Shown here in pieces: positions 11,591-31,474 of a stretch of DNA of 64,000 nt. The stretch is from IMG/VR virus record IMGVR_UViG_3300037504_000674, positions 1 to 64,000 of that record. One strand, 5' to 3'. A program made the position numbers and the translations under genes. The DNA comes from a virus. Positions within the stretch are counted from its first letter, which is position 1, and each line of letters starts with the position of its first letter. The notes beneath the pieces are model-generated. The model did not search any database. It was not told where the DNA came from and worked only from the letters and a program-made list of their open reading frames with translations.

Positions 11591-12037
11591 GTGATCAAAC
11601 ACATATTTAGACGAGTGGTGCATGTGCTTAGATGGATTCCCGTATTGTGGGAAGATTACGACTTCGACTTCTCTCACTTGTTCAAACTGATGGCTTTCAA
11701 GATGAACAGCATGGCAAGCTACTTCGAGAAACATGGGGTCGGCCACGCTGCGAAATCCAGTGCACTCGAAATGCGCAAGTCCGCAGCGCTCTTAGACAGA
11801 GCGTTAGGGTACAGATATACCGAGGACTTAGACAGCAGACTGGACGCCCTGCTGGGGCACGCAGAGCTCATCGTAGACGATTGTGGACTCGTGAGTATTG
11901 AGCGATGCTGCGACCCCAAAGAGATGGCGCCCTACTTCACGCTGAATTTTATCTACGTCAACCGCGCGCGTTCGCATGCCGACATATACAAAGCACTGTC
12001 AATCATAGCGTCAAATTACGAAGACTGGTGGGATTAG
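11591..12037 (+). CDS. Conserved phage hypothetical protein
   Basis: RWIPVLWEDYDFD...WWD family motif. Confidence 0.6.
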   Translation: MIKHIFRRVVHVLRWIPVLWEDYDFDFSHLFKLMAFKMNSMASYFEKHGVGHAAKSSALEMRKSAALLDRALGYRYTEDLDSRLDALLGHAELIVDDCGLVSIERCCDPKEMAPYFTLNFIYVNRARSHADIYKALSIIASNYEDWWD

Positions 12038-12040
12038 TGC

Positions 12041-12403
12041 ATGGTTCACTATCTATCACCTCAAGAGGAGAAGGATATCAAAAGGTCTATCCCCTGGCGA
12101 ACGATAGAGCCAGGCATCGTCGAGGTTGTCAGGCTGCTAAACACCATTGACGGTCTCGCAACTGTGCATTCTTGCGAGGGGCACGTAAGGCCCATTGACG
12201 GCGGGATATCCTCTGATAATGCGTTTATATGCGCCAGGATGTCGGAATCGGTGACCAATCGTGTTTTACTAGACGGCGTCTTTGCATGCGGGATTCGGGA
12301 TGCGAGCTTGCGGTTCTTTGAAGATGGGGTGTTCTGGGTATGCCTAGAAGTTTACCCAGCGAGTGTTGATAAATTGTATTGTCTGTATCGAGAATTGAGG
12401 TAA
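12041..12403 (+). CDS. Hypothetical protein with TYW3-like TxxSCxGH motif
   Basis: IEPGIVEVVRLLN...TVHSCEGH. Confidence 0.5.
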   Translation: MVHYLSPQEEKDIKRSIPWRTIEPGIVEVVRLLNTIDGLATVHSCEGHVRPIDGGISSDNAFICARMSESVTNRVLLDGVFACGIRDASLRFFEDGVFWVCLEVYPASVDKLYCLYRELR

Positions 12404-12954
12404 TGGCGATGAAACAGTCGATGTCTGTGCTGACATCATCGGAGACAAACGAGTGGTACACGCCGCCGCTTGTTATCAGGATGGTCAAAAATGTGTTCTG
12501 TGGTAACATTGATCTAGACCCGGCAAGCTGTGAGTACGCACAGCGATGGATTCAAGCGGACCAGTGGTTCGGAAAATCAGATGACGGGTTAAGCCAGGCA
12601 TGGCATGGGAACGTATTCCTAAATCCCCCATATGGAAAAACTGGTAACAAATCAAACCAAGATATTTGGGCACGTTATCTGCTAGGTGAGTACCGGCACG
12701 GTGACGTGCGGTCCGCTATATTACTCACCAAATGTGTGCCTGGGTATGTGTGGTGGGATAATATGTTCCACGACTGGCCTATTGCTGTATGTATTACTAG
12801 GGGTAGGATAAAGTTTGTTAGCCCGAGCGGCAGGGTGGGCCGGTCAAAATCAGCATCGTGCTTTTGGTACTTTGGCGATGACTTGCTCAGATTTGAAGAA
12901 GTGTTTTCGTCGATGGGAAGAATTGTACACCCATCGCGTGACATTAGTCACTAG
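12403..12954 (+). CDS. Phage N6-adenine DNA methyltransferase
   Basis: EWYTP, DLDPAS, DGL, NPPY, GRIKF. Confidence 0.9.
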   Translation: MAMKQSMSVLTSSETNEWYTPPLVIRMVKNVFCGNIDLDPASCEYAQRWIQADQWFGKSDDGLSQAWHGNVFLNPPYGKTGNKSNQDIWARYLLGEYRHGDVRSAILLTKCVPGYVWWDNMFHDWPIAVCITRGRIKFVSPSGRVGRSKSASCFWYFGDDLLRFEEVFSSMGRIVHPSRDISH

Positions 12955-12980
12955 GTCACCATGGCTGATTTTGCTATAAT
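12937..12980 (+). promoter_or_regulatory. Promoter with CRP-family box at about -42
   Basis: CGTGA-N6-TCACT (12937-12952), 22 nt, then TATAAT (12975-12980) with extended TG. Confidence 0.6.
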
Positions 12981-12999
12981 TATGATCAAGGAGGTACAC

Positions 13000-13275
13000 A
13001 TGCTACCAGATTGTACGATGATCAAAAAGCTGTACGAACAAGGTCTTTCGCAAGCAGAGATCGCCAAAGCGTATAGCGTGTCCAAGCAGGCAGTGAGTCA
13101 GGCTATGCGTAAGTGCGGCATCCGTGCGCGTGTTCCGCTGATGGGTGACCTGAAGAAGTTTCTCAGAGTTGTGCTGACTTATCATAACGTCAGCGGTGAT
13201 CACCTAGCAAAAGAAGCGAGTAGGCTAATGAAGAGAATTGAGGAGGAGGATCGTGAAAATTCAAGAGCTGGTTGA
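13000..13275 (+). CDS. HTH DNA-binding protein
   Basis: GLSQAEIAKAYSVSKQAVSQAM; AAGGAGG RBS. Confidence 0.8.
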   Translation: MLPDCTMIKKLYEQGLSQAEIAKAYSVSKQAVSQAMRKCGIRARVPLMGDLKKFLRVVLTYHNVSGDHLAKEASRLMKRIEEEDRENSRAG

Positions 13276-14272
13276 GAAAATAAGACGAGACAGCATTGAT
13301 AAGCACGATGCCACATTAAGCGTTGGTGACATCAATTATCATGGCGAGGGGTGTTTTGGATATTCACCAGAGCCAACACTGTTTAATCGTAGCCCGGAAC
13401 CGGCGCGGGTGACCACCAACGACTATGCGTATCGGCAATTAGTCGGGCGCGTAGATGGACCAAGCCCGCGTTGGCTAAGGGGGCCATGCCCGCCGTCGCT
13501 TGAGAATGAGGTTGTTTCCTCTATGATGGGTGTTCATTCAGATGACAAGCTGTTTATTCGCATGAGGGGCCAGCAGTGTCGGGCTGTGTTATCGTCTGAG
13601 TACACTCCGTTTGATAATAGTGAGTTCGTCAGCATAATTACTGAGTACATCCATCAAGAGGGCTTAGATGTCGATGTGAACAAAGCGATCGTTGGTGACC
13701 GCATGCGCGCTTACTTCATGCTTCCAGGTATCACATTTGACAATGGCGATCATGGCGAGTTGCACCCGGCTATCTATATACGCAACTCAGAGGTCGGTGA
13801 TGGTTCCGCCAGAATCACCGGAGGTCTCTACAGATCGGTATGTACCAATGGTATGATCTACGGATGGAAAAGGGAATCATCGGCAAAGATACAGCACCGT
13901 TGGTACAATCGTCAGATGGTGATTGCGCTAGTGTCAACGGCTATCGTAGAAGGGTTCCAAGCCTCCGAGGAGGCAGCGAAGAAATTCATCGCGTCTCAGT
14001 CAATCAACATCGAACCCAAGAGCATGGATGGTCTGTTAGAGCGATGGGCCAAGAAATACAACATAAGCCAAGAGAGCGCAGACGATTGGAGGGGCGCTTC
14101 AATTGGCAACGCCGGTGAATACGGCAGGCCCAATGAGGTTACATTGATGGATGTAATCAACGGCGCTACGTATGTGGCACAGCGCCAAGATGACCCCGAG
14201 CCATTCGAGAGGATGGCCGGCGCAATGCTAGAGGGTGTGTCAATTACTAGGGATGGGAGGGTATCATGGTGA
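13253..14272 (+). CDS. DUF932-like phage/plasmid protein
   Basis: LSSEY.PFDN, IRNSEVG, YRSVCTNGM, H motif. Confidence 0.75.
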   Translation: MKIQELVEKIRRDSIDKHDATLSVGDINYHGEGCFGYSPEPTLFNRSPEPARVTTNDYAYRQLVGRVDGPSPRWLRGPCPPSLENEVVSSMMGVHSDDKLFIRMRGQQCRAVLSSEYTPFDNSEFVSIITEYIHQEGLDVDVNKAIVGDRMRAYFMLPGITFDNGDHGELHPAIYIRNSEVGDGSARITGGLYRSVCTNGMIYGWKRESSAKIQHRWYNRQMVIALVSTAIVEGFQASEEAAKKFIASQSINIEPKSMDGLLERWAKKYNISQESADDWRGASIGNAGEYGRPNEVTLMDVINGATYVAQRQDDPEPFERMAGAMLEGVSITRDGRVSW

Positions 14273-14396
14273 CAATATACTACACCAGGCCAGGCAGAAG
14301 TATTGGCGTTTACTGCTTCATCGGATCGGTCACGCAAGCTATTGTCTCGTATGTCAAATCTGGGTTAGCCAATCCGATCAATCGGGTGGTATCATC

Positions 14397-14567
14397 ATGC
14401 TCGTAGAGATAGACGTGCCACAACAAACATCACGGGAACTACTTGATTTCCTGGATCGCTGGTGCCGCGAGCTAGACTGCCGCGACCGCGAGTTGTTTGA
14501 GCCGTTAGCAGATTTCCTAGAGCAGTTGGCATTGGAGGTAGAAGATGAATACGCAGATGTGTGGTGA
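14397..14567 (+). CDS. Small acidic hypothetical protein
   Basis: 3' part of ORF 14235-14567; overlaps the thyX start. Confidence 0.4.
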   Translation: MLVEIDVPQQTSRELLDFLDRWCRELDCRDRELFEPLADFLEQLALEVEDEYADVW

Positions 14568-15219
14568 TATTGAAGTTGTCAGGGTTGCAGGAACTGTGTC
14601 TCACGTTACACTCGACAATGAAGGTCTAATCGAGTATCTAGGCAGAGTTAGCACGAATACCTACCGAGATGCAGACTATGTCAGTAGCGAGGAGTTCATC
14701 GGGGAGCGAATTGCCGAGGGTCACTTGGGACTACTTGAGCACAACTACGTCACGTTCTTGGTGACCGGTATTAGCCGCACGGCAGCCAACCAGCTTGTTC
14801 GCCATCGCATTGCTTCATACGTTCAGCAGAGCCAGCGGTACACAGACCAAAGAGCTAACAACGTTGTCATGCCAGATTCTGTTGCCGATAACCAGCGTGC
14901 GCGCGAGGTGTTCATGTCGGTCATCAATTCCTCCAAAGACGCTTATGCGGCTCTGCGGGAGTTGGGTGTACCAAAAGAAGACGCCAGGATGGTCCTCCCC
15001 CTGGGCACCGAGACGAAGATCACTGTGACCATGAACCTGCGTACATACTTACACCTATTTGACTTACGTATATCGCCACACGCTCAGTGGGAAATAAGGC
15101 GCATGTGCCAGTTGATGTTGTTAGATTTGTGCGAGTATGCACCAAGTGTATTCGTAGACTACTTGAACGCCAATGCTGACCGGTACCCAGAGTTTTGGAA
15201 GGAGAGTGAAGATGTGTGA
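14545..15219 (+). CDS. thyX: Flavin-dependent thymidylate synthase
   Basis: RHRIASYVQQSQR signature, EDAR, AQWEIR. Confidence 0.95.
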   Translation: MNTQMCGDIEVVRVAGTVSHVTLDNEGLIEYLGRVSTNTYRDADYVSSEEFIGERIAEGHLGLLEHNYVTFLVTGISRTAANQLVRHRIASYVQQSQRYTDQRANNVVMPDSVADNQRAREVFMSVINSSKDAYAALRELGVPKEDARMVLPLGTETKITVTMNLRTYLHLFDLRISPHAQWEIRRMCQLMLLDLCEYAPSVFVDYLNANADRYPEFWKESEDV

Positions 15220-15433
15220 TCACAAAAACACCGAGATGATACGCGGTCTTCCTGGGGTCCTGATGTGCGCCAGCTGCGGAAAGCTGTTTGATGCCTATAG
15301 CCCGCAGAACTCAAATGGGCTGTTCGTCGCGATGGACGCACAGGAACTAAGCGAGGCCGTGATTGGCGCGCTGCGCCACCTGGTGCAAAGAAATCATGAG
15401 TGGTTGGCGCTAAGCATCGCCGATCTGTCTTAG
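15212..15433 (+). CDS. Small zinc-ribbon protein
   Basis: CxH...CASC; AAGGAG RBS. Confidence 0.5.
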   Translation: MCDHKNTEMIRGLPGVLMCASCGKLFDAYSPQNSNGLFVAMDAQELSEAVIGALRHLVQRNHEWLALSIADLS

Positions 15434-15445
15434 AGGGGGCTTACA

Positions 15446-15994
15446 GTGGAAGAGCTGATATTATGCGTGCCGGATAGCGAGCTTGACTGTTTCTGGGACG
15501 GCCAACTAATGCCAGGGCTGCACAAGGTGTTGTACGCAATTGCCGAAATGGATGGCAGGTTTCTCACTGAGGAGAAAGCGGAGTCTCTGAAATACGACAG
15601 GGAGGTAGTGGTTTATTGCGTTATCCGTGACAACGAAAGGGGGGTACTGAGATACCGCCGTCATGACGGCGACGACCGCCTGCGTAGCCTGTGGTCATTG
15701 GGGGTGGGCGGGCACGTGAACCTGAACGATGCCGACCAGGCGAGCGGCGTAATGGAAGATACCATGCAGATCGCCGCTGCTAGGGAGATAAACGAGGAGT
15801 TCAAAGTTGAAAATCTGGAGCTTGAGGTAATAGGCGTCATAAAATCAGACGCCAACCCCGTATGCAGAGATCACATAGGAGTTGTTTTCTTCGCTTACGC
15901 GGATATCATTGCGCCCAGGACAGAGAAAGACTTTGAGTTCTTCCAGCCAAAAAGGTACGAGGTGTGGTCTAAGATTATTTTGAACGAGCTTTGA
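15446..15994 (+). CDS. Nudix-family hydrolase (COG4112-like)
   Basis: SLGVGGHVN...AAAREINEE, H.GVV. Confidence 0.8.
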   Translation: MEELILCVPDSELDCFWDGQLMPGLHKVLYAIAEMDGRFLTEEKAESLKYDREVVVYCVIRDNERGVLRYRRHDGDDRLRSLWSLGVGGHVNLNDADQASGVMEDTMQIAAAREINEEFKVENLELEVIGVIKSDANPVCRDHIGVVFFAYADIIAPRTEKDFEFFQPKRYEVWSKIILNEL

Positions 15995-16006
15995 GACACA
16001 CGCAGA

Positions 16007-16030
16007 GGGGGCGCCTGATCAGGCGCCCCC
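16007..16030. terminator. Perfect 24-bp palindrome between convergent operons
   Basis: GGGGGCGCCTGATCAGGCGCCCCC; no U-tract. Confidence 0.6.
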
Positions 16031-16042
16031 AAGCTACGCCGC

Positions 16043-16429
16043 TTAACGGAGCACCAAATTACCCGAACTGTCGTAGGACCAAGTGGGAAAGGATGGGTAG
16101 CTAATTATGATTGTGTCTTTCTCTAATGTGGCCATTGGAATCTCGTGTTCTAGGCCGCACATCGTTAGGAAATCCAATTTCTTGGACACAGGTACACCCA
16201 GTCTCATCTCGCAGCAATCGTTGGACACTGTAATCGACACGTCTGAGCCCCGCGTATCAGCGTCACCCATTATATCAAGCACCCCCAAGTCACAATACCC
16301 AAGGAAGTCCAGTAGCTCCACAGCCGCCGCACGGCTAATGTAGTATTTATTCTCGTGAACCGTCACGTACATTCCTTCCCCAACTGGCTCTTCTGTCATC
16401 GGGCAAATCCATCGTCTTTCCTGCTTCAT
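16043..16429 (-). CDS. Hypothetical protein
   Basis: GGAGG RBS before ATG 16429. Confidence 0.55.
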   Translation of the reverse strand: MKQERRWICPMTEEPVGEGMYVTVHENKYYISRAAAVELLDFLGYCDLGVLDIMGDADTRGSDVSITVSNDCCEMRLGVPVSKKLDFLTMCGLEHEIPMATLEKDTIIISYPSFPTWSYDSSGNLVLR

Positions 16430-16440
16430 GTTTTCCTCCA

Positions 16441-18648
16441 CTAGATTGAACACTTTCCGCCGGCGCACTGCTTGCATGTCATACACCCCTCTTGAAGAAC
16501 GATTGTATTAACACCGCCGCAGTACGGGCACTTAGTATTACCGTTCCTATCAACCATGAACCCCTTACTCGTCTCAACAAACTCTCCTGAACCATTATCT
16601 CCGCCGTTGACAATACGCTGTATCACACCTCCTATTTCACCTGCGTAACCTCCCGTCTTATACAATTGATCAAGCACGTCACGCAAACCAACTCCACTGC
16701 GTAACGCGAGGCTAACCATGCGCCCAATGAGCACCGAAACATTAGTCTCGCCGGTTATGAATACCTCTACTGGTGCTCCATCTTTATCGAAATTAACTGT
16801 CACATACGTCTTGCGACCGTCGTCGGTATGCACCCTGGTTTTACCCTCAAGCGTCTCGGCGCGCTCGTGTTTCTTCTTTGTTTCTAGCACCTGATGTCTT
16901 AACGAGCCATCCCGATACACAGTGATACCCTTGCAATCGGACTGCATGGCAAGCAGGTATACATCTATGATGTCGTCTACGGTTGCATCGTTTGGTAAAT
17001 TAACCGTTTTGCTAATGCTGGCATCAATCCATTTCTGAGCAGCCGAAAGCATCTTGACATGATGGATAGGATTAATCTCACCGGCTGTCTTGTATTCCGG
17101 CAAATCTCTTGGCACACTCCCTGTCTCAAGAACATGCTTGAACTCATCTGGCGATAGGTCTAGCACATCAAGCGTCTGGCTAGTCCAATTCAACTCAGTA
17201 ATACCACCAGACCTAGAGGCCATATTGCGCGTGTACGCAAATGCGAAGTTGGGCTCGACCCCGCTTGAGCATTCCGCTATAGTCGATACTGTGCCAGTTG
17301 GCGCGATCGTATTGAGCGCCATATTGCGCAAACCGCCGTTTTGGCGAACAAAATCGAACACATCGACAAGGTCACCGGCGATTGGGTCAACGCCGTGGGC
17401 AAATCTACTATCGTTGTACGCTGCGGCCTGCCCGTACTTACGCGCCAGTCGATTGCTCTGCGAATACGAGTATTTAGTTAGGTCTCTGCACAACCGCTGA
17501 ACCTGCTGGCGACCATCCATCGAATCATATCTGTACCCTCCCTGTATTAGCCAATCATGAATACCCATCAGTCCAAGGCCGATATTTCTATACTTCAAAT
17601 TTGCATCGGCGAGCTCCTGAATTGGGAAGCTATTGATATCCACAACATCGTCAAGGAAGGAGACTGCCGCATACACGATACCCTCGAATTCATACGGTGA
17701 CAATTTAGATATATCTATAGACCCAAGATTGCAGCTTGAGTATGGCAGCAGGAACTGTTCTGCGCACGGGTTGGTTGAGTTCGCCTCCTCACGAGTTGAG
17801 CGGTATAAATTATGGCGAGTGGTAAACACCATTCCTGGGTCACCGCACTTCCAAGCGCTCTCGGCTATCGCTCGCAAGTAATCTCTGGAATTGATCTTAC
17901 CAGTTTTTCCGGTGACCTCGTGGTGAAATTCTATATCATTGTCATTGTTGTACGCCACCAAGAACTCATGCGGGTTTACGTCGATGCTGATATTGAAGAA
18001 ACTAAAAACCGAGCGCCCGTCATTACCATTCTTGGATGCGATAAAATCTAGCGCGTCTGGATGCGTGTAGTCAAGAATTCCCATCAGAGCAGCCCTTCGT
18101 TTGCCGCCCTGCTTGATGATATCGGCTGCCTTGTCGAAGATTCTCATGAACGATATCGGCCCAGAGGCCGCATTTGGTATGCTGGCTACCCGCGAATTAA
18201 GCGGCCTCAGCTGCGAGAAGTCAAACCCGACACCGCCGCCTGCTTTTGTTATCATAGCCATGTCGTACAACGCTTTGAAGATGGAGTCCATCGAGTCATG
18301 CACCGGTACTACGAAGCACGCCGATAAACAACACCCATCGCGCGACTGGTATATCCTTGTGTAATCCTGGTAAGACATCTGCTCAACCGGAATTGAGAAC
18401 ACTCCGAGGTTAAGATTGATTCCGGCATTGAACAGCGTGGGAGAATTAGGGATGAATTTACGGCTTTCGATTAAGCTGTAGTACAATCGCTCGCTGTTGA
18501 CCATCTCTGATAGCGATTTACCCTTCGGCACGCCAGCCGCAGCGACATACCTAGCCACCCTCCTGGCGATATCCTCCCATTTATCCTCCCCTTTCATAAA
18601 GTATCTATCTCTAAGCACCTGATTGACCAACTGTGGGTTTCTAAACAT
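16441..18648 (-). CDS. nrdJ: Class II (B12-dependent) ribonucleotide reductase with C-terminal TSCPD/zinc ribbon
   Basis: PNSPTLFNAG, SACFV, NPCAE, CNLGS, APTGT, GITVYRDGS; no small subunit in the window. Confidence 0.9.
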   Translation of the reverse strand: MFRNPQLVNQVLRDRYFMKGEDKWEDIARRVARYVAAAGVPKGKSLSEMVNSERLYYSLIESRKFIPNSPTLFNAGINLNLGVFSIPVEQMSYQDYTRIYQSRDGCCLSACFVVPVHDSMDSIFKALYDMAMITKAGGGVGFDFSQLRPLNSRVASIPNAASGPISFMRIFDKAADIIKQGGKRRAALMGILDYTHPDALDFIASKNGNDGRSVFSFFNISIDVNPHEFLVAYNNDNDIEFHHEVTGKTGKINSRDYLRAIAESAWKCGDPGMVFTTRHNLYRSTREEANSTNPCAEQFLLPYSSCNLGSIDISKLSPYEFEGIVYAAVSFLDDVVDINSFPIQELADANLKYRNIGLGLMGIHDWLIQGGYRYDSMDGRQQVQRLCRDLTKYSYSQSNRLARKYGQAAAYNDSRFAHGVDPIAGDLVDVFDFVRQNGGLRNMALNTIAPTGTVSTIAECSSGVEPNFAFAYTRNMASRSGGITELNWTSQTLDVLDLSPDEFKHVLETGSVPRDLPEYKTAGEINPIHHVKMLSAAQKWIDASISKTVNLPNDATVDDIIDVYLLAMQSDCKGITVYRDGSLRHQVLETKKKHERAETLEGKTRVHTDDGRKTYVTVNFDKDGAPVEVFITGETNVSVLIGRMVSLALRSGVGLRDVLDQLYKTGGYAGEIGGVIQRIVNGGDNGSGEFVETSKGFMVDRNGNTKCPYCGGVNTIVLQEGCMTCKQCAGGKCSI

Positions 18649-19198
18649 TGTCTCTCCATTGATTTTGTGAAGCATCTATTGCGCTAAGTGGCTGATCATG
18701 CGCACCGCTGCCAAAATGCTCTGCTAGCTCCTTGAGGTCCTTGACGACTTGGTATGGCTCGTAGACATCACGCAGCGAGAATGGGTAGCGGGACCACCCG
18801 ACCTGCACGTTGACATCCCCGTGGTTTGTTAGCATCTCCCAGGGGCCTCTACGAACCACCCATGCGCTTTGTAGATCGGCGATATCTCCCTGGCGAGTAG
18901 ATGAGTAGCGCAGCGGTGTGTGGTAATGGATACGTAGCACTCCCTTGTTTGTGACTAAATAATACTCGTCATGCCAATCGGAGTATGCAACATATAGCAC
19001 AAACCCGGATAGGGATATTAACACAAGGCCTAGTGGGGCCACAAAGTACCAGCGCATTGCGCGGGTGATCAATAGCATGGTAATCATAATCACGCACGCA
19101 CCAAACAGCAGGGCGGGGAATTTCAACCACTTAGCACTGGCTAATAGTGACCTTCTAATTATATACAGTGGCTCAGAGGTACTACCACCTTCACGCAT
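18641..19198 (-). CDS. Two-TM membrane protein with bacterial PH domain
   Basis: Two TM helices, then W..EYYLVTNK...GDVNVQ...L.DV..P. Confidence 0.7.
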   Translation of the reverse strand: MREGGSTSEPLYIIRRSLLASAKWLKFPALLFGACVIMITMLLITRAMRWYFVAPLGLVLISLSGFVLYVAYSDWHDEYYLVTNKGVLRIHYHTPLRYSSTRQGDIADLQSAWVVRRGPWEMLTNHGDVNVQVGWSRYPFSLRDVYEPYQVVKDLKELAEHFGSGAHDQPLSAIDASQNQWRDNV

Positions 19199-19406
19199 CT
19201 CTTACTCTTCTGGTTCTAGATACAGTTGGCGGAGATTGTGCAGATGTCACATCCATAGCTTGAAGGGTATGCTTACTCGAACTTTGGCTTCTGTCACAGC
19301 TAGAGTCCACTTTTCTAGCAACGTACCCCAAGTAGAAACTAATCACAATCGACACAGCCCATAATAAGCACATCAAAGCAAACACGAAAGGCGAAATTTC
19401 AATCAT
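19191..19406 (-). CDS. Small single-TM protein
   Basis: Hydrophobic N-terminus; overlaps both neighbours. Confidence 0.6.
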   Translation of the reverse strand: MIEISPFVFALMCLLWAVSIVISFYLGYVARKVDSSCDRSQSSSKHTLQAMDVTSAQSPPTVSRTRRVRDA

Positions 19407-20812
19407 CCGCGCTTCTCCTTGAGTAATTCTAGATCAATTGAGGCGGCCTTATTTTTGGATTCCCGCTCCTCAATGATGCCGTCATCGACCAGCCTGAGCC
19501 ACACACGATTAGAGCGCGGGTACCCCCAACCCATCGCGGTTTGGATGTAACTCTTGGTTGTTTCCTCGATCCCGCGATCAATAATGTGGTTGGCGAAGTC
19601 GATCACATCCTTCGTCATATCTGAGGAACGAACATCGGCTGCCGTTCTTACATCCAATACTACTTTTTGATTATCTTGATATTTTGCTCTTAGCTCACTG
19701 ATTAAGCGCGTGATATTAGAATAATCCTCCTCGTCACCAGCAAAGGCTGCCTGGAAGCGGGTTGAATTGCTGGTAATAAACGCACCCCTTCCAGGCAAGT
19801 ATTCTGCCTGCGTATCGCCGTGCCCTATGGCAATGTAGGCATCTGTTGGGTTTTGCATTGCCCCGCACATCACCAGTCTAAACTGACCCTTGGCGTCCCC
19901 GCCACCAACACGATCAACCTTAGGGCGCTGGGTGGTAACGTACAAGTGGATTTTCTCTGATCTGCCCAAGCGCATTAAGCTATCCATGCGCTTACCTATT
20001 TCTGGGCTACCTGAGGCGATGAGGTCAGCGATCTCGCCAATATAAACTACCAGGCGAGGCAAATCGCGCTTACCTTCCGGTGGCAGTTTAGATCGCCGAT
20101 CGCGCTCTTCTTCTACCCAAGCCAGAATAGCCGAGGCGATGTCTGGATCGGCTGTCGGCTCATGCATCAGATGGGGCAAATCAGACCACGGCATTACATC
20201 TGCTTGTTTCCCACTCATGATAAACACGCCTAGCTCACTAGGCTTGTACGCGGAAGCCAAGCCGTACAACAGCGTGTTCCCCAGCGTAGTTTTTCCAGAG
20301 CCGCTCGAACCAGCTATTAAGATGTGGTGGTGTTTAGAGGATTCGTTTCTCACAACCACCTCTTCGCCGTCAAGCGTTTTGCCAACCACTATATGATTAG
20401 GCCTGGATGGCCCCAGCGACGATATGACCAACTTTCGGAAATAATCCTCCCCCACAATGTCGGACAGGCTAAAGTCGAACACTATAAACCCGCCGCCAAT
20501 AGAAATGCCAAAATCTGCACCCTCTGGCAATCCAAGATTTCCCTTGATGACATACTTGGTTTTGGACCTGATGGTAGATATGTTGCGAAATGCGTTACCT
20601 TGTTGCTGGTAAGCATGATCAACTTTGCCGAACCTCTCTTGCTGCAACAGCCTGATTTCCTGATGGCTGGCGGGCTTCGCGTAAAATCTGCACTGGTCAG
20701 ACAAGATAACAATTCCGTCGCTATTTATGATTACCGGGTACCCATCATCATAGCAGGCCGACTCAATGAAATCAGCCGCTCTATTTAACAGCTTGACCAA
20801 TTTAGCATCCAA
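19403..20812 (-). CDS. FtsK/SpoIIIE/TraB-like DNA translocase with C-terminal gamma wHTH and no TM domain
   Basis: HILIAGSSGSGKT, VVYIGEIADL (Walker B D to G), LGRS, TQRP, SYIQ..MGWGYPRSNR...L...GII; probable TTG start at 20812 with GGAGG RBS. Confidence 0.85.
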   Translation of the reverse strand: MDAKLVKLLNRAADFIESACYDDGYPVIINSDGIVILSDQCRFYAKPASHQEIRLLQQERFGKVDHAYQQQGNAFRNISTIRSKTKYVIKGNLGLPEGADFGISIGGGFIVFDFSLSDIVGEDYFRKLVISSLGPSRPNHIVVGKTLDGEEVVVRNESSKHHHILIAGSSGSGKTTLGNTLLYGLASAYKPSELGVFIMSGKQADVMPWSDLPHLMHEPTADPDIASAILAWVEEERDRRSKLPPEGKRDLPRLVVYIGEIADLIASGSPEIGKRMDSLMRLGRSEKIHLYVTTQRPKVDRVGGGDAKGQFRLVMCGAMQNPTDAYIAIGHGDTQAEYLPGRGAFITSNSTRFQAAFAGDEEDYSNITRLISELRAKYQDNQKVVLDVRTAADVRSSDMTKDVIDFANHIIDRGIEETTKSYIQTAMGWGYPRSNRVWLRLVDDGIIEERESKNKAASIDLELLKEKRG

Positions 20813-21347
20813 AATGATCCTCCAGGAATAATGCGCACACGTTGGTGTCCCACCCGGTAATCGCTGATATAGCAGAGATAGCCGTGTGCTCATGCCCACT
20901 CTCAACCATTTTTTCTAGCACCTGCCTAATACGGCGCGACCCGTATTTTTCGATTAGGCAGTCCATCGTGTATTCATTGGCTTGGGTGTCTGTGCATACC
21001 AACGTCTTGTACACGGTGTACCCCATCACAACCAAAATAAACAGTGTGGCCGACCAGATCAGCGGCTTGAACACTTGGTATCTAGCTACCATATTAACTG
21101 TCTTGTTATCCCTCATGGTATTTTCGTACAAGATGCGCTCGTTGTTTTTGTGGATGATCTCCTGGGATAATCTTGAATTTCTCTCAGATAGCTCTACGAC
21201 CTGCTTAGACAAATATCTGTTGGTATCCATGACGCTAGACTTAGTCGTGTTGTATGCGCTATACCCCAAAAGCGAAACTATTAAGCAAGTCATGAGTCCT
21301 ATGATGCACGCCATAGTTACCAGTACATCTTTCATGAATCCCTCCAC
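20802..21347 (-). CDS. Two-TM protein with intervening coiled coil
   Basis: TM-coiled coil-TM; overlaps the FtsK start. Confidence 0.65.
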   Translation of the reverse strand: MEGFMKDVLVTMACIIGLMTCLIVSLLGYSAYNTTKSSVMDTNRYLSKQVVELSERNSRLSQEIIHKNNERILYENTMRDNKTVNMVARYQVFKPLIWSATLFILVVMGYTVYKTLVCTDTQANEYTMDCLIEKYGSRRIRQVLEKMVESGHEHTAISAISAITGWDTNVCALFLEDHFGC

Positions 21348-21955
21348 TCGCTACGCGGCGTCTCAGGGTCCTCTTCAACCGTCGGAACCGCACCCTTAAA
21401 GTACCTTACCGATCTACGACCATGCAAGAAATCCGTCACCGAGTGCATGGCCTCGCCTACCACCTCGCCAGTCAAAAACAGCCATGTCACCTTCCATTGC
21501 AGCGGCCTGGCTGTGAGCATCACAATATCTAGCGGGCTCACCCTGATCCTGGCGACAGAGTCAAGCGCAAGCATTGCAACATTGAAAGAAAGTATCCCCC
21601 CGATTATTAGAGCGTTGATAATGAAAAACAGATATATCAGTTTCGTAACCGAAGATAGCACGGGCCAATGCGATAGCGGGCTTCTATGTTTCACGATAAT
21701 TTGATACGGCAACCACAGATGCTTTAGCCCTCTCCAATGATTGTAGGGCGCGCTTGGGATATCTAAATCCGGCGACAGTATGGTCCCGCCAGCATACGCG
21801 CCCGCAGCTATGACAACCGACGAAGGTAGCGGCGCAATGTTTCTATGCGCGACGCCCAATAGTTTGTACGTTAGGTTTGCACAGATAAAGCAAGTGGCCG
21901 CTGTAGTAGCGGCCACTAACTTAGACACTTTTTTGTGCGCAGGATATCCTGGCAT
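21332..21955 (-). CDS. DUF2227-type membrane metal-binding protein/hydrolase
   Basis: MPGYPAH, LSPDLD, LW.PY...KHRSPLSH.P, H...D. Confidence 0.8.
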   Translation of the reverse strand: MPGYPAHKKVSKLVAATTAATCFICANLTYKLLGVAHRNIAPLPSSVVIAAGAYAGGTILSPDLDIPSAPYNHWRGLKHLWLPYQIIVKHRSPLSHWPVLSSVTKLIYLFFIINALIIGGILSFNVAMLALDSVARIRVSPLDIVMLTARPLQWKVTWLFLTGEVVGEAMHSVTDFLHGRRSVRYFKGAVPTVEEDPETPRSEWRDS

Positions 21956-21968
21956 TTATCCCCCCAAC

Positions 21969-22451
21969 TCAACTAGAGATCACGATACAGTTATCGAGCC
22001 GAAATGCCCTGGTGAATTCCGGTTGCTTCTGACCGGCTTCGTATACCACAACCTTCACACCGCCTCGCTGAAACTGCTGGTCCCAGCCATGCTCATCTGC
22101 ATAGTCAAGTTTTTCAAACCTCAGCTCGTAGTCATCAGGTAACTCTCCTTTCAGCTTACTTAGTATACCACGATATGAAGGTTTTGCAAGCCAATCGGGA
22201 AAGCCGTCTTCTTCATCTGGTTCTTGTAAATCATCACCAAAACTCTCCCAATTAAACCTGAATTCCTTGCGACCGCCATCGACTGTCTGGCTGCTGATCG
22301 CATCTGGATAATCCTCCGATATTCTGTCGATGGATATCGAGATGTTCGGTTTGGATATATCCCATATTTCAGCTAATTCATCGTAAGTAAACCTGTCACC
22401 AATAGCACGTATTTCAAACAGCCTGTCGTTCCAAGTCTCAGTTAACGCCAT
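21969..22451 (-). CDS. Acidic protein with N-terminal wHTH
   Basis: TYDELAEIWDISKPNISISIDRI. Confidence 0.6.
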   Translation of the reverse strand: MALTETWNDRLFEIRAIGDRFTYDELAEIWDISKPNISISIDRISEDYPDAISSQTVDGGRKEFRFNWESFGDDLQEPDEEDGFPDWLAKPSYRGILSKLKGELPDDYELRFEKLDYADEHGWDQQFQRGGVKVVVYEAGQKQPEFTRAFRLDNCIVISS

Positions 22452-22452
22452 G

Positions 22453-25400
22453 TTAGGTTAACTCCTTCACTGGGGAGCGCGGCTCCCAATTCTGATCGTA
22501 CCACCCGCCACCCAACCATCTAGGGTCAGACACCCCGGCGTCGCCGAGGTGCCATGAGCACATCGCTAGTAAATTAGTCTCGCTTTGCACGTAGTCGTAC
22601 ATATCAACGACAACATTTCCCCATGTATCCCAATCGTAATCGGGCATCCATCCCAAATCATTCATGTGCGACGGAGAGTACACCCCGCCCTCGGTGCTGA
22701 TGGTTTTTGGTATCACAGACAAATGATGGTAAATTTGCTCTTGATACACCTGATATCCCTTGAGGCACATGTCGGTTACGAAAGACTGTTGGTAAGGACT
22801 GTAGTCTAGCGGCCTATTGAACCTGGCGGCATGCACTGCCAACCACCCTTGATCGTTTAGGACCGATCTTGCACGATCTTGTTCGTTTTCGCGCAACCAA
22901 AGCGCAATCTTGCTAACCCACATGATAGCAGAATACTTATCGTTTGTGCCATTACGATCCGTGGGCGCCATGGCATAGAACGCTGGTTTGCCACCCATAG
23001 AAACAATTTTCTCGGCATCTAGTAACCAGTTGGACGCAACCAGCGAGACGATATGATCATTCTGCCAGCTCACTAGGTCCTGATAATCTGACCGCCACTC
23101 GTTTGGTAAATTGGGCTCATTGCCTATCTCGAAGTACTGCACGCCAACATCAATGAGTCGCTGAGCGCGCTCGATATTTTTTAGATTACCAGGAAATTGC
23201 CCGGCTTGATACAGCCTGACAATCGGCGTGATATCGTTATTCAAAAGCTCAGCACACATATCCACATTTGCGTCATCACCAGTGTCGAGTAGCTTATACC
23301 ATTTGACACCGAGCCGCTTGAGGTGACCAGCTATATTGGCGGGAGAGTCTGGAGGCGATGTGACCGGTGGCGCATGCACGCCACGCGAGTTGTCTCCATC
23401 GTCTTCGGGCCACAAGATAAGTGGCGCAGGATCAACAAACTCCCCGTTTACACGAACATCAATATGCAGGTGATCGCCGTATGATTTACCGGTGTTATCT
23501 GGCTTGCCTATCAAATCACCGCGCTTCAACTGGTCGCCCTTTTGAACGTAAGCGCCATTCTCTACCATATGAGCGTAGCGTGTGCGTACATCATCTGCGT
23601 TAATACGCGAGTCAACAACAACAGTGTATCCGAAGTCACCCAGATCGCCAACAGACACAACCTCACCAGGAAGTGCGCATACGAGTTCGTCTCCCCAGGC
23701 AGCCCATGACGATCTCAAGTCAAGGCCCATGTGGATATACGAACCGCGATCTGCGCCAAATGGTGATGTGATATGAGGTGGCATGTGCGTTGTGGGGTAC
23801 TCTAGCCAAGGCACGCTTTGATCTGGGTAGTAATACTGACGCAGAAGCCGGGCAAACTCTTCCGGGCCACCAGCATCTATCGGGATATACTCGATGTCTG
23901 GGTAATGTTCGCCGAAAAACGATTTCAGATCGCCATTCCACGAATCTGGATTAAGCGCCACGACCGTTGTATCGGTCCCCGGCCCCCACCCGGCATCATC
24001 CGCAGATGATGAAATCGTAAATCTCTTTTCATTCCAGATATCAGCCAGTCCACTTACCCAATCGAAATCATGGTCTGGGGGGATCAAGATATACGTTCGA
24101 TCATACACCTCGCGTGGCTCACATGATGTTTTGGGTGGCTTGGCGCACTCGTAGTCTTTAACCGAGCGCATGTAATCATGAAGCTCTTGATCCCAATCTA
24201 TAAAGTTAAAGTTGCGCCATGTACTCGCCACCGATGACAGTGTAAACAAGTGGGCGCCAAGGACGTAGTAATCTTCACATAGCCCTTCGTCATACCAGGA
24301 AATCTCATCGAGCCATTCGTTCGGACTAATTTTTCGAGTGTACCACGGAAGGGCAACGTTGAACTCAGTGATCAGCAATGGAACAACCTCGCCACGCGGG
24401 ATCAAGAAATCCTCGTAGAGCCAGCGGTATCTAAACGCCAGCGTCCCGCGATCCGGGTATGTCGGCCTACCAGGAAGTGGCTCGCCAAACCCATCATCCA
24501 TCGGGTAAGCATATTCATGCAATGCCAGCACATGCCCGCCAGCTTTTGCGTCGGCGAACACACCAGTATGGACAATAGCTTCCCAGTCCTCCCATTCTGG
24601 GACACCCATGCTATACGAGAAAAGAGCTAACTTGAACCCATTAGCATTCGCTATGCTTATACAATGCTTGAAGAATTCAGCGATACTCCTGTGCCCCTCC
24701 GTTCCTGGCGGGTCTTGCTCGTTGATAATCTCCCAGTAATCAACGTAAGGGTGCTGTTCCCAAATCGGCATGAGGTTATTCATAATCAGCTCGGCCTCTG
24801 CGGCCAGGTCGCCGCTGAAGTCTGGGCCCTCCACATTTATGCTGGGGTCAACGCCGTGCATAAGACGGGCGACCGTGATTGTCTCAGGGGATTCGCGCTT
24901 GATATCAGCCAGCCATCCGACATCGTTTAGTGCCTTGACTGTCGGTACAGCGAACCCATCATCCATGGCATCCTCTATGACATCCGACGTGCCGCCATCA
25001 CCAATGGAGTGAATACCTAGTTTGGTTCCGGCGGAAATGTAGGGATAGTCATAATCGCCTGGTGGTGGCGTTGGTGGTTCAGGGTGAGTCTTAACCAATT
25101 CTAGCTTAGCGTTGTCATAATACGCATCATTATGCTTGAACGGCCACAAAACTGTGTGGTACAAAAAAACTGTAGCCGTGCTCCTTACCGCCACAAACTC
25201 AACAGGCGGAACTTCGTGGAACTTGTTGTAGATATGCGCTCCGGTACCCCATATGACGCTGCTTGCGTATGGATTGGTTCCGCCGGTCGGGTCAACGCCT
25301 ACCGAGAAGGTGAAATTCTCTAGCGCGTGATCGTCTACCAAACCAGATAACTTGAAGTACCCAGAGTTTCCTGCTACCTCGCTGTAGCTTGGGTCGTCTG

Positions 25401-25761
25401 AATTGGATGACCATGCATGAGCATGAACGCTAAAGCGGTACCGCTTACCTGGCTCAACCTCAACTTGCTGGTACAGCCCGCCCTCGCCAATCTTGTAAAA
25501 CGTGAACATGACATACCCATAGGGAGGAGAAATATAGCGTCCATCATGCGGCGCTAGGCGCGCCTCTGGCTCGGCGTAGCCTACTTGATTATCCGGGTCG
25601 TGCATTGGTGGCCTCTCATCGTGGTAGTACCATACTTTCCAATCCGCAGGGGCGCTCACTTCGCCACGTTCTGTTTCGTAATACCCGTTTTGATCCGGGG
25701 TATACACATGGCACTTATGACTGCCGCCACCTGGTGCATCGAAGTTAGGGTTCTTCAACAT
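22453..25761 (-). CDS. Multi-domain cell-envelope hydrolase: CBM-like, GH-A-like, linker domain, M23 peptidase, second GH-A-like
   Basis: GGLYQ.V..PG, GVDPTGG, KHNDAYYD; WEIINE/ALHEY/ITEF; HMGLD and HLH; FEIGNEPN/LAVH/STEGG. Confidence 0.75.
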   Translation of the reverse strand: MLKNPNFDAPGGGSHKCHVYTPDQNGYYETERGEVSAPADWKVWYYHDERPPMHDPDNQVGYAEPEARLAPHDGRYISPPYGYVMFTFYKIGEGGLYQQVEVEPGKRYRFSVHAHAWSSNSDDPSYSEVAGNSGYFKLSGLVDDHALENFTFSVGVDPTGGTNPYASSVIWGTGAHIYNKFHEVPPVEFVAVRSTATVFLYHTVLWPFKHNDAYYDNAKLELVKTHPEPPTPPPGDYDYPYISAGTKLGIHSIGDGGTSDVIEDAMDDGFAVPTVKALNDVGWLADIKRESPETITVARLMHGVDPSINVEGPDFSGDLAAEAELIMNNLMPIWEQHPYVDYWEIINEQDPPGTEGHRSIAEFFKHCISIANANGFKLALFSYSMGVPEWEDWEAIVHTGVFADAKAGGHVLALHEYAYPMDDGFGEPLPGRPTYPDRGTLAFRYRWLYEDFLIPRGEVVPLLITEFNVALPWYTRKISPNEWLDEISWYDEGLCEDYYVLGAHLFTLSSVASTWRNFNFIDWDQELHDYMRSVKDYECAKPPKTSCEPREVYDRTYILIPPDHDFDWVSGLADIWNEKRFTISSSADDAGWGPGTDTTVVALNPDSWNGDLKSFFGEHYPDIEYIPIDAGGPEEFARLLRQYYYPDQSVPWLEYPTTHMPPHITSPFGADRGSYIHMGLDLRSSWAAWGDELVCALPGEVVSVGDLGDFGYTVVVDSRINADDVRTRYAHMVENGAYVQKGDQLKRGDLIGKPDNTGKSYGDHLHIDVRVNGEFVDPAPLILWPEDDGDNSRGVHAPPVTSPPDSPANIAGHLKRLGVKWYKLLDTGDDANVDMCAELLNNDITPIVRLYQAGQFPGNLKNIERAQRLIDVGVQYFEIGNEPNLPNEWRSDYQDLVSWQNDHIVSLVASNWLLDAEKIVSMGGKPAFYAMAPTDRNGTNDKYSAIMWVSKIALWLRENEQDRARSVLNDQGWLAVHAARFNRPLDYSPYQQSFVTDMCLKGYQVYQEQIYHHLSVIPKTISTEGGVYSPSHMNDLGWMPDYDWDTWGNVVVDMYDYVQSETNLLAMCSWHLGDAGVSDPRWLGGGWYDQNWEPRSPVKELT

Positions 25762-29254: not shown

Positions 29255-29282
29255 ATTGTATCACATCATTCTAGTTTGTCAA
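29255..29282 (-). promoter_or_regulatory. Sigma70 consensus promoter; leaderless transcript
   Basis: TTGACA-N16-TACAAT with extended TG; ATG 7 nt downstream. Confidence 0.8.
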
Positions 29283-29331: not shown

Positions 29332-29928
29332 ATGAGGAAACGCGAGCCATTACTAAAGAAAGATAAGTGCATATTAGCCGAGATGGTGGCGCGCAAGGGG
29401 ATTATTTGCTCACCAGACGTCCTCATCATTGCCGATAACTGCAACGCAACCGTTGAGTACGTTCACGACATCATCAATGCTTCCAACAACAAAGGCAAGG
29501 ATATTAACCAGCGCGTCAACAAATCGCTCGCGCATGTTCCGCTAAACAGCGACGAGCGCATCATGGCATACGCCCAAGTGATGTTGGAAGACAAGCTGAA
29601 TCGTAGAAGAATAAATGATTTACAGCTCACTGACCGCGACCCATTAGATATCCTCGACTTCGCCAGGAAGCTGAGGCACCCAGAACGCGGAACCAACATC
29701 CAAATCAACAACGCAAATCAGCCACAGATGTTTGACTTTTCTGGATGGGATACTGAGCAACTACAAAGGCTTGTCAGCAGAGTACAGTCAGCAATCGAAA
29801 CTGGAAATATAGAGGCGGTAGATGCAGAATTCAGAGAGATCGAAGATTCTCTTGCAATTTTACCAGGACGCTCAAGCGACGCTGAACCAGAAGCTATATC
29901 AGAAGGCGCTCACCAGGCCGAAGAATGA
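29332..29928 (+). CDS. Probable terminase small subunit
   Basis: Directly upstream of TerL; TNIQINN and D.S..DTEQL tail. Confidence 0.6.
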   Translation: MRKREPLLKKDKCILAEMVARKGIICSPDVLIIADNCNATVEYVHDIINASNNKGKDINQRVNKSLAHVPLNSDERIMAYAQVMLEDKLNRRRINDLQLTDRDPLDILDFARKLRHPERGTNIQINNANQPQMFDFSGWDTEQLQRLVSRVQSAIETGNIEAVDAEFREIEDSLAILPGRSSDAEPEAISEGAHQAEE

Positions 29929-31474
29929 TGACGAGTTATGGGAGTGGATACGGGATGCGTTAGGATTCAAGATGTCTCGCCACACCACGCACCCAGAGCA
30001 TAAAACGCTATTCCAATTTATCGCCGATGCGTTTTTCGAGCGCGAGCCGATACTACTAGCTAGAGGTAATCGGGGCGGCGGGAAAACGCGCGGCTACTCG
30101 ATTTTCGAGACTGCCACCACAGTCTTCAAAGACCATTCATTCACTGTGCATGTAGGAGGTTCTGAGGGGCAAGCGAAGGACGGGTACGCATACTACGCAG
30201 GATCAAAAGCCAGGGATGGTGAGGACGGATTGATTCGCAAGCCATACTTCGCGAACCTACTAGACGAGGAGCCTATGGTGAGCAGAACAGTGCTCACCAA
30301 CGGGGCTAAGCTAGAGATTCGAACTGGCGGCTCCGAGCGCGCTGTTTCGGGACCGCACCCTCAAATTCTGGCGGTAGATGAGGTTGATCATATTGACCCG
30401 CAGACGCTCGCCACAGCCATGGAGATGCCCATGGATGGTCATGGATACAAGGCAACTACCCTTCTTGCGTCTAGTCAATACCACTCTTCCGGGACCATGC
30501 AGTCGTTTATCGATACGGCTGAAGAGCGGAATCTACCAGTGTATCAATTTGACATCTTTGATACCATGCAGCCGTGCGGAAGAGAATACCCATCGGAATG
30601 CGGTGACTGCCCCCTACAATACTGGGTCAATCCATACACGAACAATCACGAGGAATTATGCACCGGGCGCGGGTCAAGAGCCGATGGGCACTACCCGTAC
30701 ACCAATGTAGTGAGTAAGTTCGTAAACGCAATTGACCCAGAGAAATGGGCTTTGCAAAACTTGCTTCTCAACGATCGCCAGCAGGGCCTGGTGTACCCGC
30801 AATACGATTCTGGGAACCAGCAATCGTTCCCGCCAAGCGGCGCCGATCTAACGAAGTGGACCTGCTTTGCGGGTATCGACCAGCGGGGTAGAGGCAGAAT
30901 TGTAGTTCTTGCTCAGGGGCCAGACGAATACTCTAATGGCAAAAAGCCAACTTGGGCCATAGCGGAATGGGCTGATGATAACAACACGCCCAGCAAGCTA
31001 ATCCAAGCCGCAAAAGATATGTCGAGGCGCATTGTTGAAGAGTTCGGGTTACATATATCTGCGTTTTGGTCCGAGAGGGCAGCGGCGGACTTGATTAAAG
31101 ACTGGCCCGCAGATATGGGCTGCTCAATCATTCCTAAGGAAGTGGCTAACGTGGCCTACGGCATTGGCGTGGTGAGGGACGCATTCAGGGATAACACCAT
31201 GACACGCTCGTTATTCATTGATACCGAACGCTGCCCGAAATTACACCGGGCTATAGCTAAAAAATACAAGTGCAAGCGTAATGCAGACGGATCATACAAC
31301 CGAGATAGACCCGGCAAATCCGGCGAGGATTTCGCTGACACTCTCAGGTACGCCTATGTGGGTGGCGCAGGCAGATCGTATTTCCATCTACCAGAACCTG
31401 TCATATTGGGACCTCCGAGAGGCGCGTTCGGTAATCAAGAACGACATACGCAAAACAAATGGCGACCGTATTAA
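29822..31474 (+). CDS. terL: Terminase large subunit
   Basis: GNRGGGKT, AVDEVD, GLVYPQY, GID, D.ADTLRY. Confidence 0.85.
   Translation: MQNSERSKILLQFYQDAQATLNQKLYQKALTRPKNDDELWEWIRDALGFKMSRHTTHPEHKTLFQFIADAFFEREPILLARGNRGGGKTRGYSIFETATTVFKDHSFTVHVGGSEGQAKDGYAYYAGSKARDGEDGLIRKPYFANLLDEEPMVSRTVLTNGAKLEIRTGGSERAVSGPHPQILAVDEVDHIDPQTLATAMEMPMDGHGYKATTLLASSQYHSSGTMQSFIDTAEERNLPVYQFDIFDTMQPCGREYPSECGDCPLQYWVNPYTNNHEELCTGRGSRADGHYPYTNVVSKFVNAIDPEKWALQNLLLNDRQQGLVYPQYDSGNQQSFPPSGADLTKWTCFAGIDQRGRGRIVVLAQGPDEYSNGKKPTWAIAEWADDNNTPSKLIQAAKDMSRRIVEEFGLHISAFWSERAAADLIKDWPADMGCSIIPKEVANVAYGIGVVRDAFRDNTMTRSLFIDTERCPKLHRAIAKKYKCKRNADGSYNRDRPGKSGEDFADTLRYAYVGGAGRSYFHLPEPVILGPPRGAFGNQERHTQNKWRPY

Follow-up and report, generated by a model that had tools for sequence, protein, structure and literature searches.

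The stretch of DNA studied here, termed the window in the following, comprises the first 64 kb of a virus record with a total length of 92,752 nucleotides (nt) (IMG/VR record IMGVR_UViG_3300037504_000674). Between its recA and nrdJ genes it carries a block of five genes encoding a winged helix-turn-helix (wHTH) protein, a DUF2227 membrane protein, a soluble FtsK-type ATPase, a small protein with one transmembrane (TM) segment and a protein with two TM segments and a PH fold. This five-gene block is real, previously undescribed and clade-specific. As we tentatively propose, its products may assemble into an FtsK ring docked to the membrane, by which phage DNA inside the infected cell would be held in place or moved slowly.

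A soluble FtsK with an altered ATP site and conserved neighbours

The FtsK gene starts with TTG at position 20812, preceded 8 nt upstream by GGAGGA, and thus encodes a protein of 469 amino acids (aa) and not the 500 aa of the full open reading frame (ORF). The protein matches PF01580 at 84.5 bits (cut-off 24). Its first 135 residues align to the alpha domain and the remainder to the beta and gamma domains, while a search for hydrophobic or TM segments in the protein found none. The family profile matches E. coli FtsK (2IUS, E 4e-38) as well as the gamma structures 2J5P and 5DCF, the latter being a XerD-FtsK gamma fusion. In agreement with a preliminary description of the window, this is therefore an FtsK with a gamma wHTH and without a TM domain.

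Walker A (GSSGSGKT, with G168, G173 and K174 invariant in the family) is retained, as are the catalytic Glu and two arginines of the gamma helix, R433 and R436. Walker B, on the other hand, reads VVYIGE, with Gly in nine of nine family members at a position that is occupied by Asp in 31 of 31 other FtsK-like proteins, and also in two Tra proteins, two phage FtsK-like proteins and a paralogue encoded by the same phage. A second Asp is lost where SGK replaces DPK in all nine members, the Asp again being present in 31 of 31 other FtsK-like proteins. The Walker B sequence YIGE in place of hhDE, which the preliminary description had mentioned as a caveat, is thus a family-wide trait that goes along with the loss of another invariant Asp. 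Two of the nine members lack the Arg that aligns with the ARA motif (position 284), and no family-invariant substitute acid was found in the family alignment. In E. coli FtsK, the exchange D1121A at the same Walker B position served to provide a hydrolysis-defective subunit (PMC2868570). The altered site argues against a fast pump, and the ATPase may instead be slow or act in the manner of a switch.

When 1.84 billion representatives were searched, the family proved to consist of eight clusters at 50% identity, all with lengths of 457-477 aa, and no longer fused form was present among these representatives. Carriers besides the window phage are IMG/VR contigs of 97 kb (L001), 119 kb (L004) and 110.7 kb (L005), the last being 100% complete and flanked by terminal repeats. 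Apart from the 97-kb contig already found, a metagenome scan returned a single contig of 5.8 kb, which is closely related to the 97-kb contig and likewise carries a member of the FtsK family. The window phage and its three relatives are compared in the following as four phage lineages with sizes of 93-119 kb and about 25-50% identity.

In all four lineages, the order of genes is recA, wHTH, DUF2227, a variable slot, FtsK, 1-TM mini-protein and 2-TM PH protein, with overlapping or abutting junctions between the last three. The conserved core, as deduced from gene order and homology, is made up of the five genes named above. Orthologues of the wHTH protein are present in L001, L004, L005 and a further locus, L091. 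The DUF2227 and 2-TM PH proteins have orthologues in all four lineages, and this also applies to the 1-TM protein, which is represented by positional orthologues of 53-66 aa. The linkage of FtsK with membrane proteins, one of the initial observations, is therefore kept in four lineages. Four of the 18 TM-bearing ORFs in the genome (138 ORFs in total) are located around the soluble FtsK. Among 77 other viral FtsK-like loci there was not one with any of the partner genes, and when the DUF2227 and PH proteins were used in turn for reciprocal scans of the IMG/VR viruses, these contigs alone were returned.

Two further genes that the preliminary description had included in the block behave differently. 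A homologue of the large wall hydrolase occurs at the equivalent place only in L005, where it lacks the M23 domain, and is absent from L001 and L004. The gene for a protein with two TM segments flanking a heptad-rich stretch has homologues only in L001 and L091, encoding 118 aa without a tail. In L004 the slot between DUF2227 and FtsK (L004:6194-6993, plus strand) is filled by two soluble genes instead, one of which is homologous to an ORF that the window phage has at genome positions 71566-71943, and in L005 the slot is empty. Accordingly, the synteny expected for related phages exists for the five core genes, which co-occur in four lineages, and not for the hydrolase and TM-coiled-coil-TM genes, each of which is found in two. 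The proposals that the hydrolase is part of the module and that the upstream 2-TM protein serves as a split membrane anchor are not supported, as each gene is absent in two of the four lineages and the M23 domain is absent in a third.

Outside the window, the same phage encodes a second, canonical FtsK-like ATPase that has Walker B DE, no gamma domain and no membrane neighbours (none of the TM-bearing ORFs lies around it) and is conserved in all four phages. On phrog_1358 the soluble FtsK scores 107 bits, compared with 250 bits for this paralogue. In the complete 110.7-kb relative, the paralogue is situated about 1 kb from a tyrosine recombinase.

Relation to cellular FtsK, TraB and other ATPases

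The hidden Markov model (HMM) built for the family detects cellular FtsK with 137-180 bits as one stretch (three split rows gave 48-107 bits per stretch) and five Streptomyces Tra proteins with 0-38 bits. The soluble FtsK shares 25-29% identity with cellular FtsK. It does not belong to the cell-division FtsK equivalog (NCBIfam PRK10263, 53.8 bits with a cut-off of 1566; 4-TM domain absent, gamma present), nor is it a member of NCBIfam plasmid_TraB (NF041214, 16.3 bits with a cut-off of 800), and its best plasmid matches are annotated as DNA translocase FtsK, not as Tra. In a maximum-likelihood tree of motor domains, the family forms a clade (Shimodaira-Hasegawa-like approximate likelihood ratio test, SH-aLRT, 99) that is nested among short, mostly TM-less FtsK-like proteins (SH-aLRT 100), apart from cellular FtsK and Tra. 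Forcing the family together with Tra was not rejected by the approximately unbiased (AU) test (p 0.30), so that phylogeny alone is not decisive on a kinship with Tra. By its sequence scores, the protein is distinct from the TraB-like ATPases to which it had originally been compared, and neither Pfam nor PHROG revealed a Spd-type partner (SpdB/DUF2637) among the partner proteins of the block.

Likeness to cellular FtsK/SpoIIIE (E. coli and P. aeruginosa; 2IUS, 2IUT, 2IUU and, for gamma, 2J5P) extends over alpha, beta and gamma, all of which align, and includes Walker A, the catalytic Glu, the Q of TQRP and the gamma helix G-x-x-R-x-x-R. The phage protein differs in that it has neither the 4-TM domain nor the linker and comprises only 469 aa, in the replacements of the Walker B Asp by Gly, of DPK by SGK and of R326 by Tyr, and in being phage-encoded with dedicated membrane-protein neighbours. 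SftA of B. subtilis is a soluble FtsK paralogue devoid of TM segments that is recruited to the septum by another protein; it is cellular, has a canonical Walker B and is about twice as long as the phage protein. A translocase of this type, lacking TM segments, therefore needs a partner to reach its site of action.

FtsK/SpoIIIE-like ATPases from tailed phages (PHROG 1358/3551; e.g., Bacillus phage Shbh1 gp25 and Mycobacterium phage Schatzie gp193) belong to the same ATPase family, yet only the protein studied here has a cellular-type gamma domain, GE in place of DE and DUF2227, 1-TM and PH partners. In the Bastille-like Bacillus phage Shbh1 (L088, record 11806-17033), a gene for a metallo-endopeptidase and genes for putative membrane proteins are located less than 3 kb upstream of the gene for the FtsK/SpoIIIE-like protein of 768 aa, a layout that loosely parallels that of the window. 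The TraB/Tra, Spd and clt systems of Streptomyces plasmids (pSVH1, pIJ101) also feature an FtsK-like ATPase with a C-terminal wHTH beside small membrane proteins (PMC4447253). The phage system differs from them in that its ATPase belongs to another sequence family and lacks a hydrophobic segment, in the absence of clt-type repeats, in partners unrelated to SpdA, SpdB and DUF2637 and in its location on a phage and not on a plasmid. For the Walker B motif only, a precedent is provided by the PilT/GspE secretion ATPases, which are hexameric additional-strand catalytic-glutamate (ASCE) ATPases that have Gly in place of the Walker B acid, directly before the catalytic Glu. Enzymes of the PilT type work with this Gly-Glu Walker B because the Glu of the ASP box takes over magnesium binding (PMC5424180). 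They constitute a different family, and no invariant acid equivalent to this magnesium-binding Glu was found in the FtsK family.

Gene products, operon and source phage

All seven ORFs listed in the preliminary description are present on the minus strand with the features that had been reported, and they lie close together, successive ORFs overlapping by 4-17 nt or being separated by at most 13 nt (Table 1). The assignment of the flanking genes as recA and nrdJ, the latter encoding a class II ribonucleotide reductase (RNR), was confirmed by Pfam. The view of the block as a separate module holds as far as adjacency and packing of the genes are concerned, but the block forms part of one long leftward operon of about 13 kb in the order HNH gene, phosphoesterase gene, recA, block, nrdJ and one further gene, and neither a promoter nor a terminator of its own was found above chance. 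In the 97-kb relative, the class II RNR downstream of the block (L001:12202-15120, plus strand) comprises 972 aa and contains a LAGLIDADG homing-endonuclease insert, probably an intein, that is absent from nrdJ of the window phage.

Table 1. Features of the block, its operon and the source phage (positions refer to the window unless indicated otherwise)
Feature	Size	Position	Strand	Basis and remarks
Multidomain wall hydrolase	1102 aa	22453..25761	-	Pfam, PHROG and PDB M23 matches; accessory
wHTH protein	160 aa	21969..22451	-	No Pfam match; predicted structure; core
DUF2227 (YdjM-like) polytopic membrane protein	207 aa	21332..21955	-	PF09988; core
TM / heptad-rich / TM protein with soluble C-terminal tail	181 aa	20802..21347	-	Hydropathy; accessory
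Soluble FtsK, alpha-beta-gamma	469 aa	19403..20812	-	PF01580; core
1-TM protein	71 aa	19191..19406	-	Start overlaps FtsK stop; core
2-TM PH-fold protein	185 aa	18641..19198	-	Predicted structure; core
Sigma-70-like promoter, TTGACA-16-TACAAT with extended TG		29255..29282	-	Consensus match only; head of leftward operon
Perfect 12+12 GC-rich palindrome		16007..16030	unassigned	Convergent end of leftward operon; possible two-way terminator
Second, canonical FtsK-like ATPase	385 aa	genome 86910-88067 (= L003:3910-5067), outside window	-	phrog_1358, 250 bits
Portal				phrog_113, 189 bits
Major head protein, HK97-type				phrog_1005, 236 bits
Tape measure protein				Structural gene of the phage
Presumed TerL		29822-31474	+	Motifs and position only

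With regard to the core proteins other than FtsK, the 160-aa protein was modelled (pLDDT 82) with an N-terminal MarR-like winged helix, for which MarR/SlyA-type matches were obtained with a root-mean-square deviation of about 2 A across about 70 residues, and a C-terminal beta domain. The DUF2227 protein matches PF09988 at 99 bits (cut-off 25), and the motifs SPDLD...HRSPxSHWP are invariant in the aligned DUF2227 proteins. In the 71-aa protein, an N-terminal TM segment is followed by a polar tail that is predicted to be cytoplasmic and ends with the conserved basic motif R-x-V-R/K. In the model of the 185-aa protein (pLDDT 75.5), two long helices lead into a sandwich of the PH type that is predicted to be cytoplasmic. 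The bacterial PH domains 3DCX and 3HSA are its top PDB matches, and an Atlas feature search led to bPH_2-type clusters at 0.92-0.93. No Pfam match, bPH_2 (PF03703) included, was obtained for this protein even at E 5, and a word-based homologue search returned the protein itself alone.

Among the accessory proteins, that of 181 aa has a heptad-rich stretch between two hydrophobic segments, the coiled coil having been assessed by eye. The hydrolase contains Peptidase_M23 (PF01551) at aa 677-778 (57.8 bits, cut-off 28.7) with intact zinc ligands (HxxxD as H-M-G-L-D, HxH as H-L-H), in addition to an N-terminal domain and two other domains, all without assignment, and neither a TM segment nor a signal peptide was found in it. 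More likely, it is a modular lysin located here by chance.

Neither clt-like repeats nor local word arrays were found in or near the block. The only strong word array of the genome, at 67117-67369 (L002:3117-3369), consists of about 16 copies of a 15-nt unit with the core CAGATTCGC. It sits inside an ORF (66675-67487, minus strand) whose coding strand specifies a pentapeptide-repeat protein and does not represent a clt-like site.

The virus record has a completeness of about 84% according to CheckV, and the stretch is contained in tidal-flat metagenomes, with matches in three DNA sequencing runs, one of which may be its source, and no RNA run among the runs listed. Judged by its predicted structural genes, the virus is a tailed phage. 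The presumed TerL has Walker A GNRGGGKT and Walker B ILAVDE and is encoded between the HNH gene and the portal gene. Pfam, PHROG and PDB did not provide a match for it, even when a four-sequence profile was used, and among GenBank phages it matches a single gene that lacks annotation, in Microcystis phage Mvi-JY20 (21% identity), a phage that shares this TerL-like gene but has no match to the FtsK family studied here. The presumed TerL would represent a very divergent TerL lineage. The original view that the soluble FtsK is unlikely to be the packaging motor agrees with the presence of this TerL-like ATPase, a portal and an HK97-type capsid, and a role in packaging was dropped for the same reason. 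A defence system was likewise dropped, as PADLOC yielded generic FtsK/HerA P-loop matches only. Elsewhere in the window (10828-11589, plus strand), a 253-aa protein with four hydrophobic segments is encoded, for which neither Pfam nor PHROG supports an SpdB-like identity.

Homologues of portal and TerL in isolates share at most 30% identity, with hosts spread over many phyla. Chloroflexota is the most frequent phylum among the Atlas clusters closest to the PH protein, a weak lead that, together with the tidal-flat source, hints at the host suggested in the preliminary description, which is thereby not shown. In GenBank phages, megablast with the region gave zero matches, and when genome contigs were scanned, once for N-terminal patterns of the FtsK and once for DUF2227 patterns, no relative turned up and so no context of a prophage or an integrative and conjugative element. 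A tyrosine recombinase is encoded in one of the four related records and a serine recombinase in none; the phages therefore look mostly virulent. Activation of Xer recombination was down-weighted as a role of the soluble FtsK, as the only tyrosine recombinase in the four records adjoins the other FtsK paralogue.

A possible membrane-docked ring and the alternatives to it

In the reading that we tentatively favour and regard as possible rather than probable, the five-gene core would be co-expressed with the recombination and nucleotide genes of the phage, and the 1-TM and 2-TM proteins, being co-translated, would expose the basic tail and the PH domain on the cytoplasmic face of the membrane, a topology supported by charge distribution. 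Membrane PHb proteins have been predicted to carry cytoplasmic, ring-forming PH domains (PMC2817789), and by analogy to solved bacterial PH rings the phage PH protein may form a ring as well. The resulting membrane platform would recruit the anchor-less FtsK ring, which could bind double-stranded phage DNA through the retained gamma winged helix. With two invariant Asp residues of the active site exchanged, this ring would probably function as an ATP-gated clamp or slow translocase and not as a kilobase-per-second pump. Its task within the infected cell would thus be to tether, sort or clear phage DNA during replication, at the membrane or at the septum. Functional analogies for such tethering are offered by soluble SftA and by the membrane-tethered replication of phi29. 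DUF2227 and the wHTH protein would be conserved companions of no assigned role. A docked ring is favoured by the finding that the order of the core is kept while neighbouring slots gain and lose genes. Several points weigh against it. The whole recA-nrdJ region, unrelated genes included, is syntenic in the same four lineages, so that the conserved order could be due to simple descent within one clade, and the four lineages are four related, non-independent observations. The search for strand-skewed words resembling FtsK-orienting polar sequences returned tRNA T-arm words only and thus no word that gamma could read. As PilT-like ATPases with Gly-Glu are active, the altered site of the phage FtsK is, moreover, no proof of slow or absent hydrolysis.

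The regional synteny is also the basis for an explanation that dispenses with a common machine, in which the genes would be neighbours by descent, FtsK acting alone in recombination or replication, e.g., in resolving or unlinking products, and the small membrane proteins and DUF2227 having roles of their own in the envelope, for instance in the timing of lysis, in superinfection exclusion or in the remodelling of membranes. The lack of a separate promoter and terminator and the variable presence of the hydrolase and TM-coiled-coil-TM genes fit with this explanation, and bPH_2 membrane proteins have in another context been linked to bacteriocin transport or immunity and not to DNA (PMC8657885). 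We nevertheless consider it rather unlikely, in view of overlapping or abutting FtsK/1-TM/2-TM junctions in all lineages, of partner genes that are found nowhere else in IMG/VR and of TM proteins that cluster at this FtsK and not at the canonical paralogue. A different use of the altered ATP site would be made by a decoy for host take-over, i.e., an ATP-binding, hydrolysis-poor FtsK look-alike with a gamma domain that occupies XerD or the loading sites of host FtsK, or poisons septal DNA clearance and arrests chromosome segregation or division during infection. The family-wide loss of two Asp residues in the catalytic pocket with retention of Walker A, catalytic Glu, R433 and R436 would suit such a decoy, as would the match of the gamma region to the XerD-FtsK gamma fusion 5DCF, the classification of phage FtsK-like proteins as host takeover in PHROGs and the availability of a canonical FtsK-like ATPase for real motor work. 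With an identity to cellular FtsK of only 25-29%, however, mixed hexamers are unlikely, and the dedicated membrane partners would be left without a reason; a decoy therefore appears distinctly unlikely to us.

Finally, the preliminary description had envisaged cell-to-cell spread. The five-gene core would in this case constitute a split conduit similar to SpoIIIE or TraB, in which the 2-TM PH and 1-TM proteins form a ring that serves as channel, with the soluble FtsK docked to it. Double-stranded phage DNA would be pumped through a membrane or septum and reach an adjacent cell or compartment without the formation of virions, and the hydrolase would open the wall. The layout is analogous to that of TraB and Spd proteins (PMC4447253), membrane PH proteins have been proposed as rings or pores (PMC2817789), the operon of this phage also encodes an M23 hydrolase, and a clade that unites the family with Tra is not rejected by the AU test. 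As a weak indication, the Atlas clusters closest to the PH protein most often stem from Chloroflexota. On the other hand, conservation is lacking for both the hydrolase and the proposed anchor, the plasmid_TraB model gives the phage protein a low score and the family HMM does the same for Tra proteins, and the maximum-likelihood tree places the family among short soluble FtsK-like proteins. Clt-like repeats and polar words were not found in the searches described above, SpdB/DUF2637-type proteins were not detected and two otherwise invariant Asp residues of the active site have been exchanged. An integrase was not found in three of the four records, so that there would be no obvious persistence after transfer. 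Taken together, this evidence leaves the conduit very improbable.

To our knowledge, phage-encoded FtsK-like proteins are widespread and none has a demonstrated function. The family described here offers a clean case, as a complete but anchor-less FtsK module with an ATP site changed at two otherwise invariant residues is accompanied by the same membrane-protein neighbours in every relative found and by a canonical paralogue in the same phage. A membrane-docked clamp, if true, would represent a new way in which phages organise their replicating DNA, and a conduit, if true, would amount to a virion-independent route for phage spread. The Gly-Glu Walker B within an FtsK fold is, in addition, a natural experiment on the use of acidic residues in this motor family.

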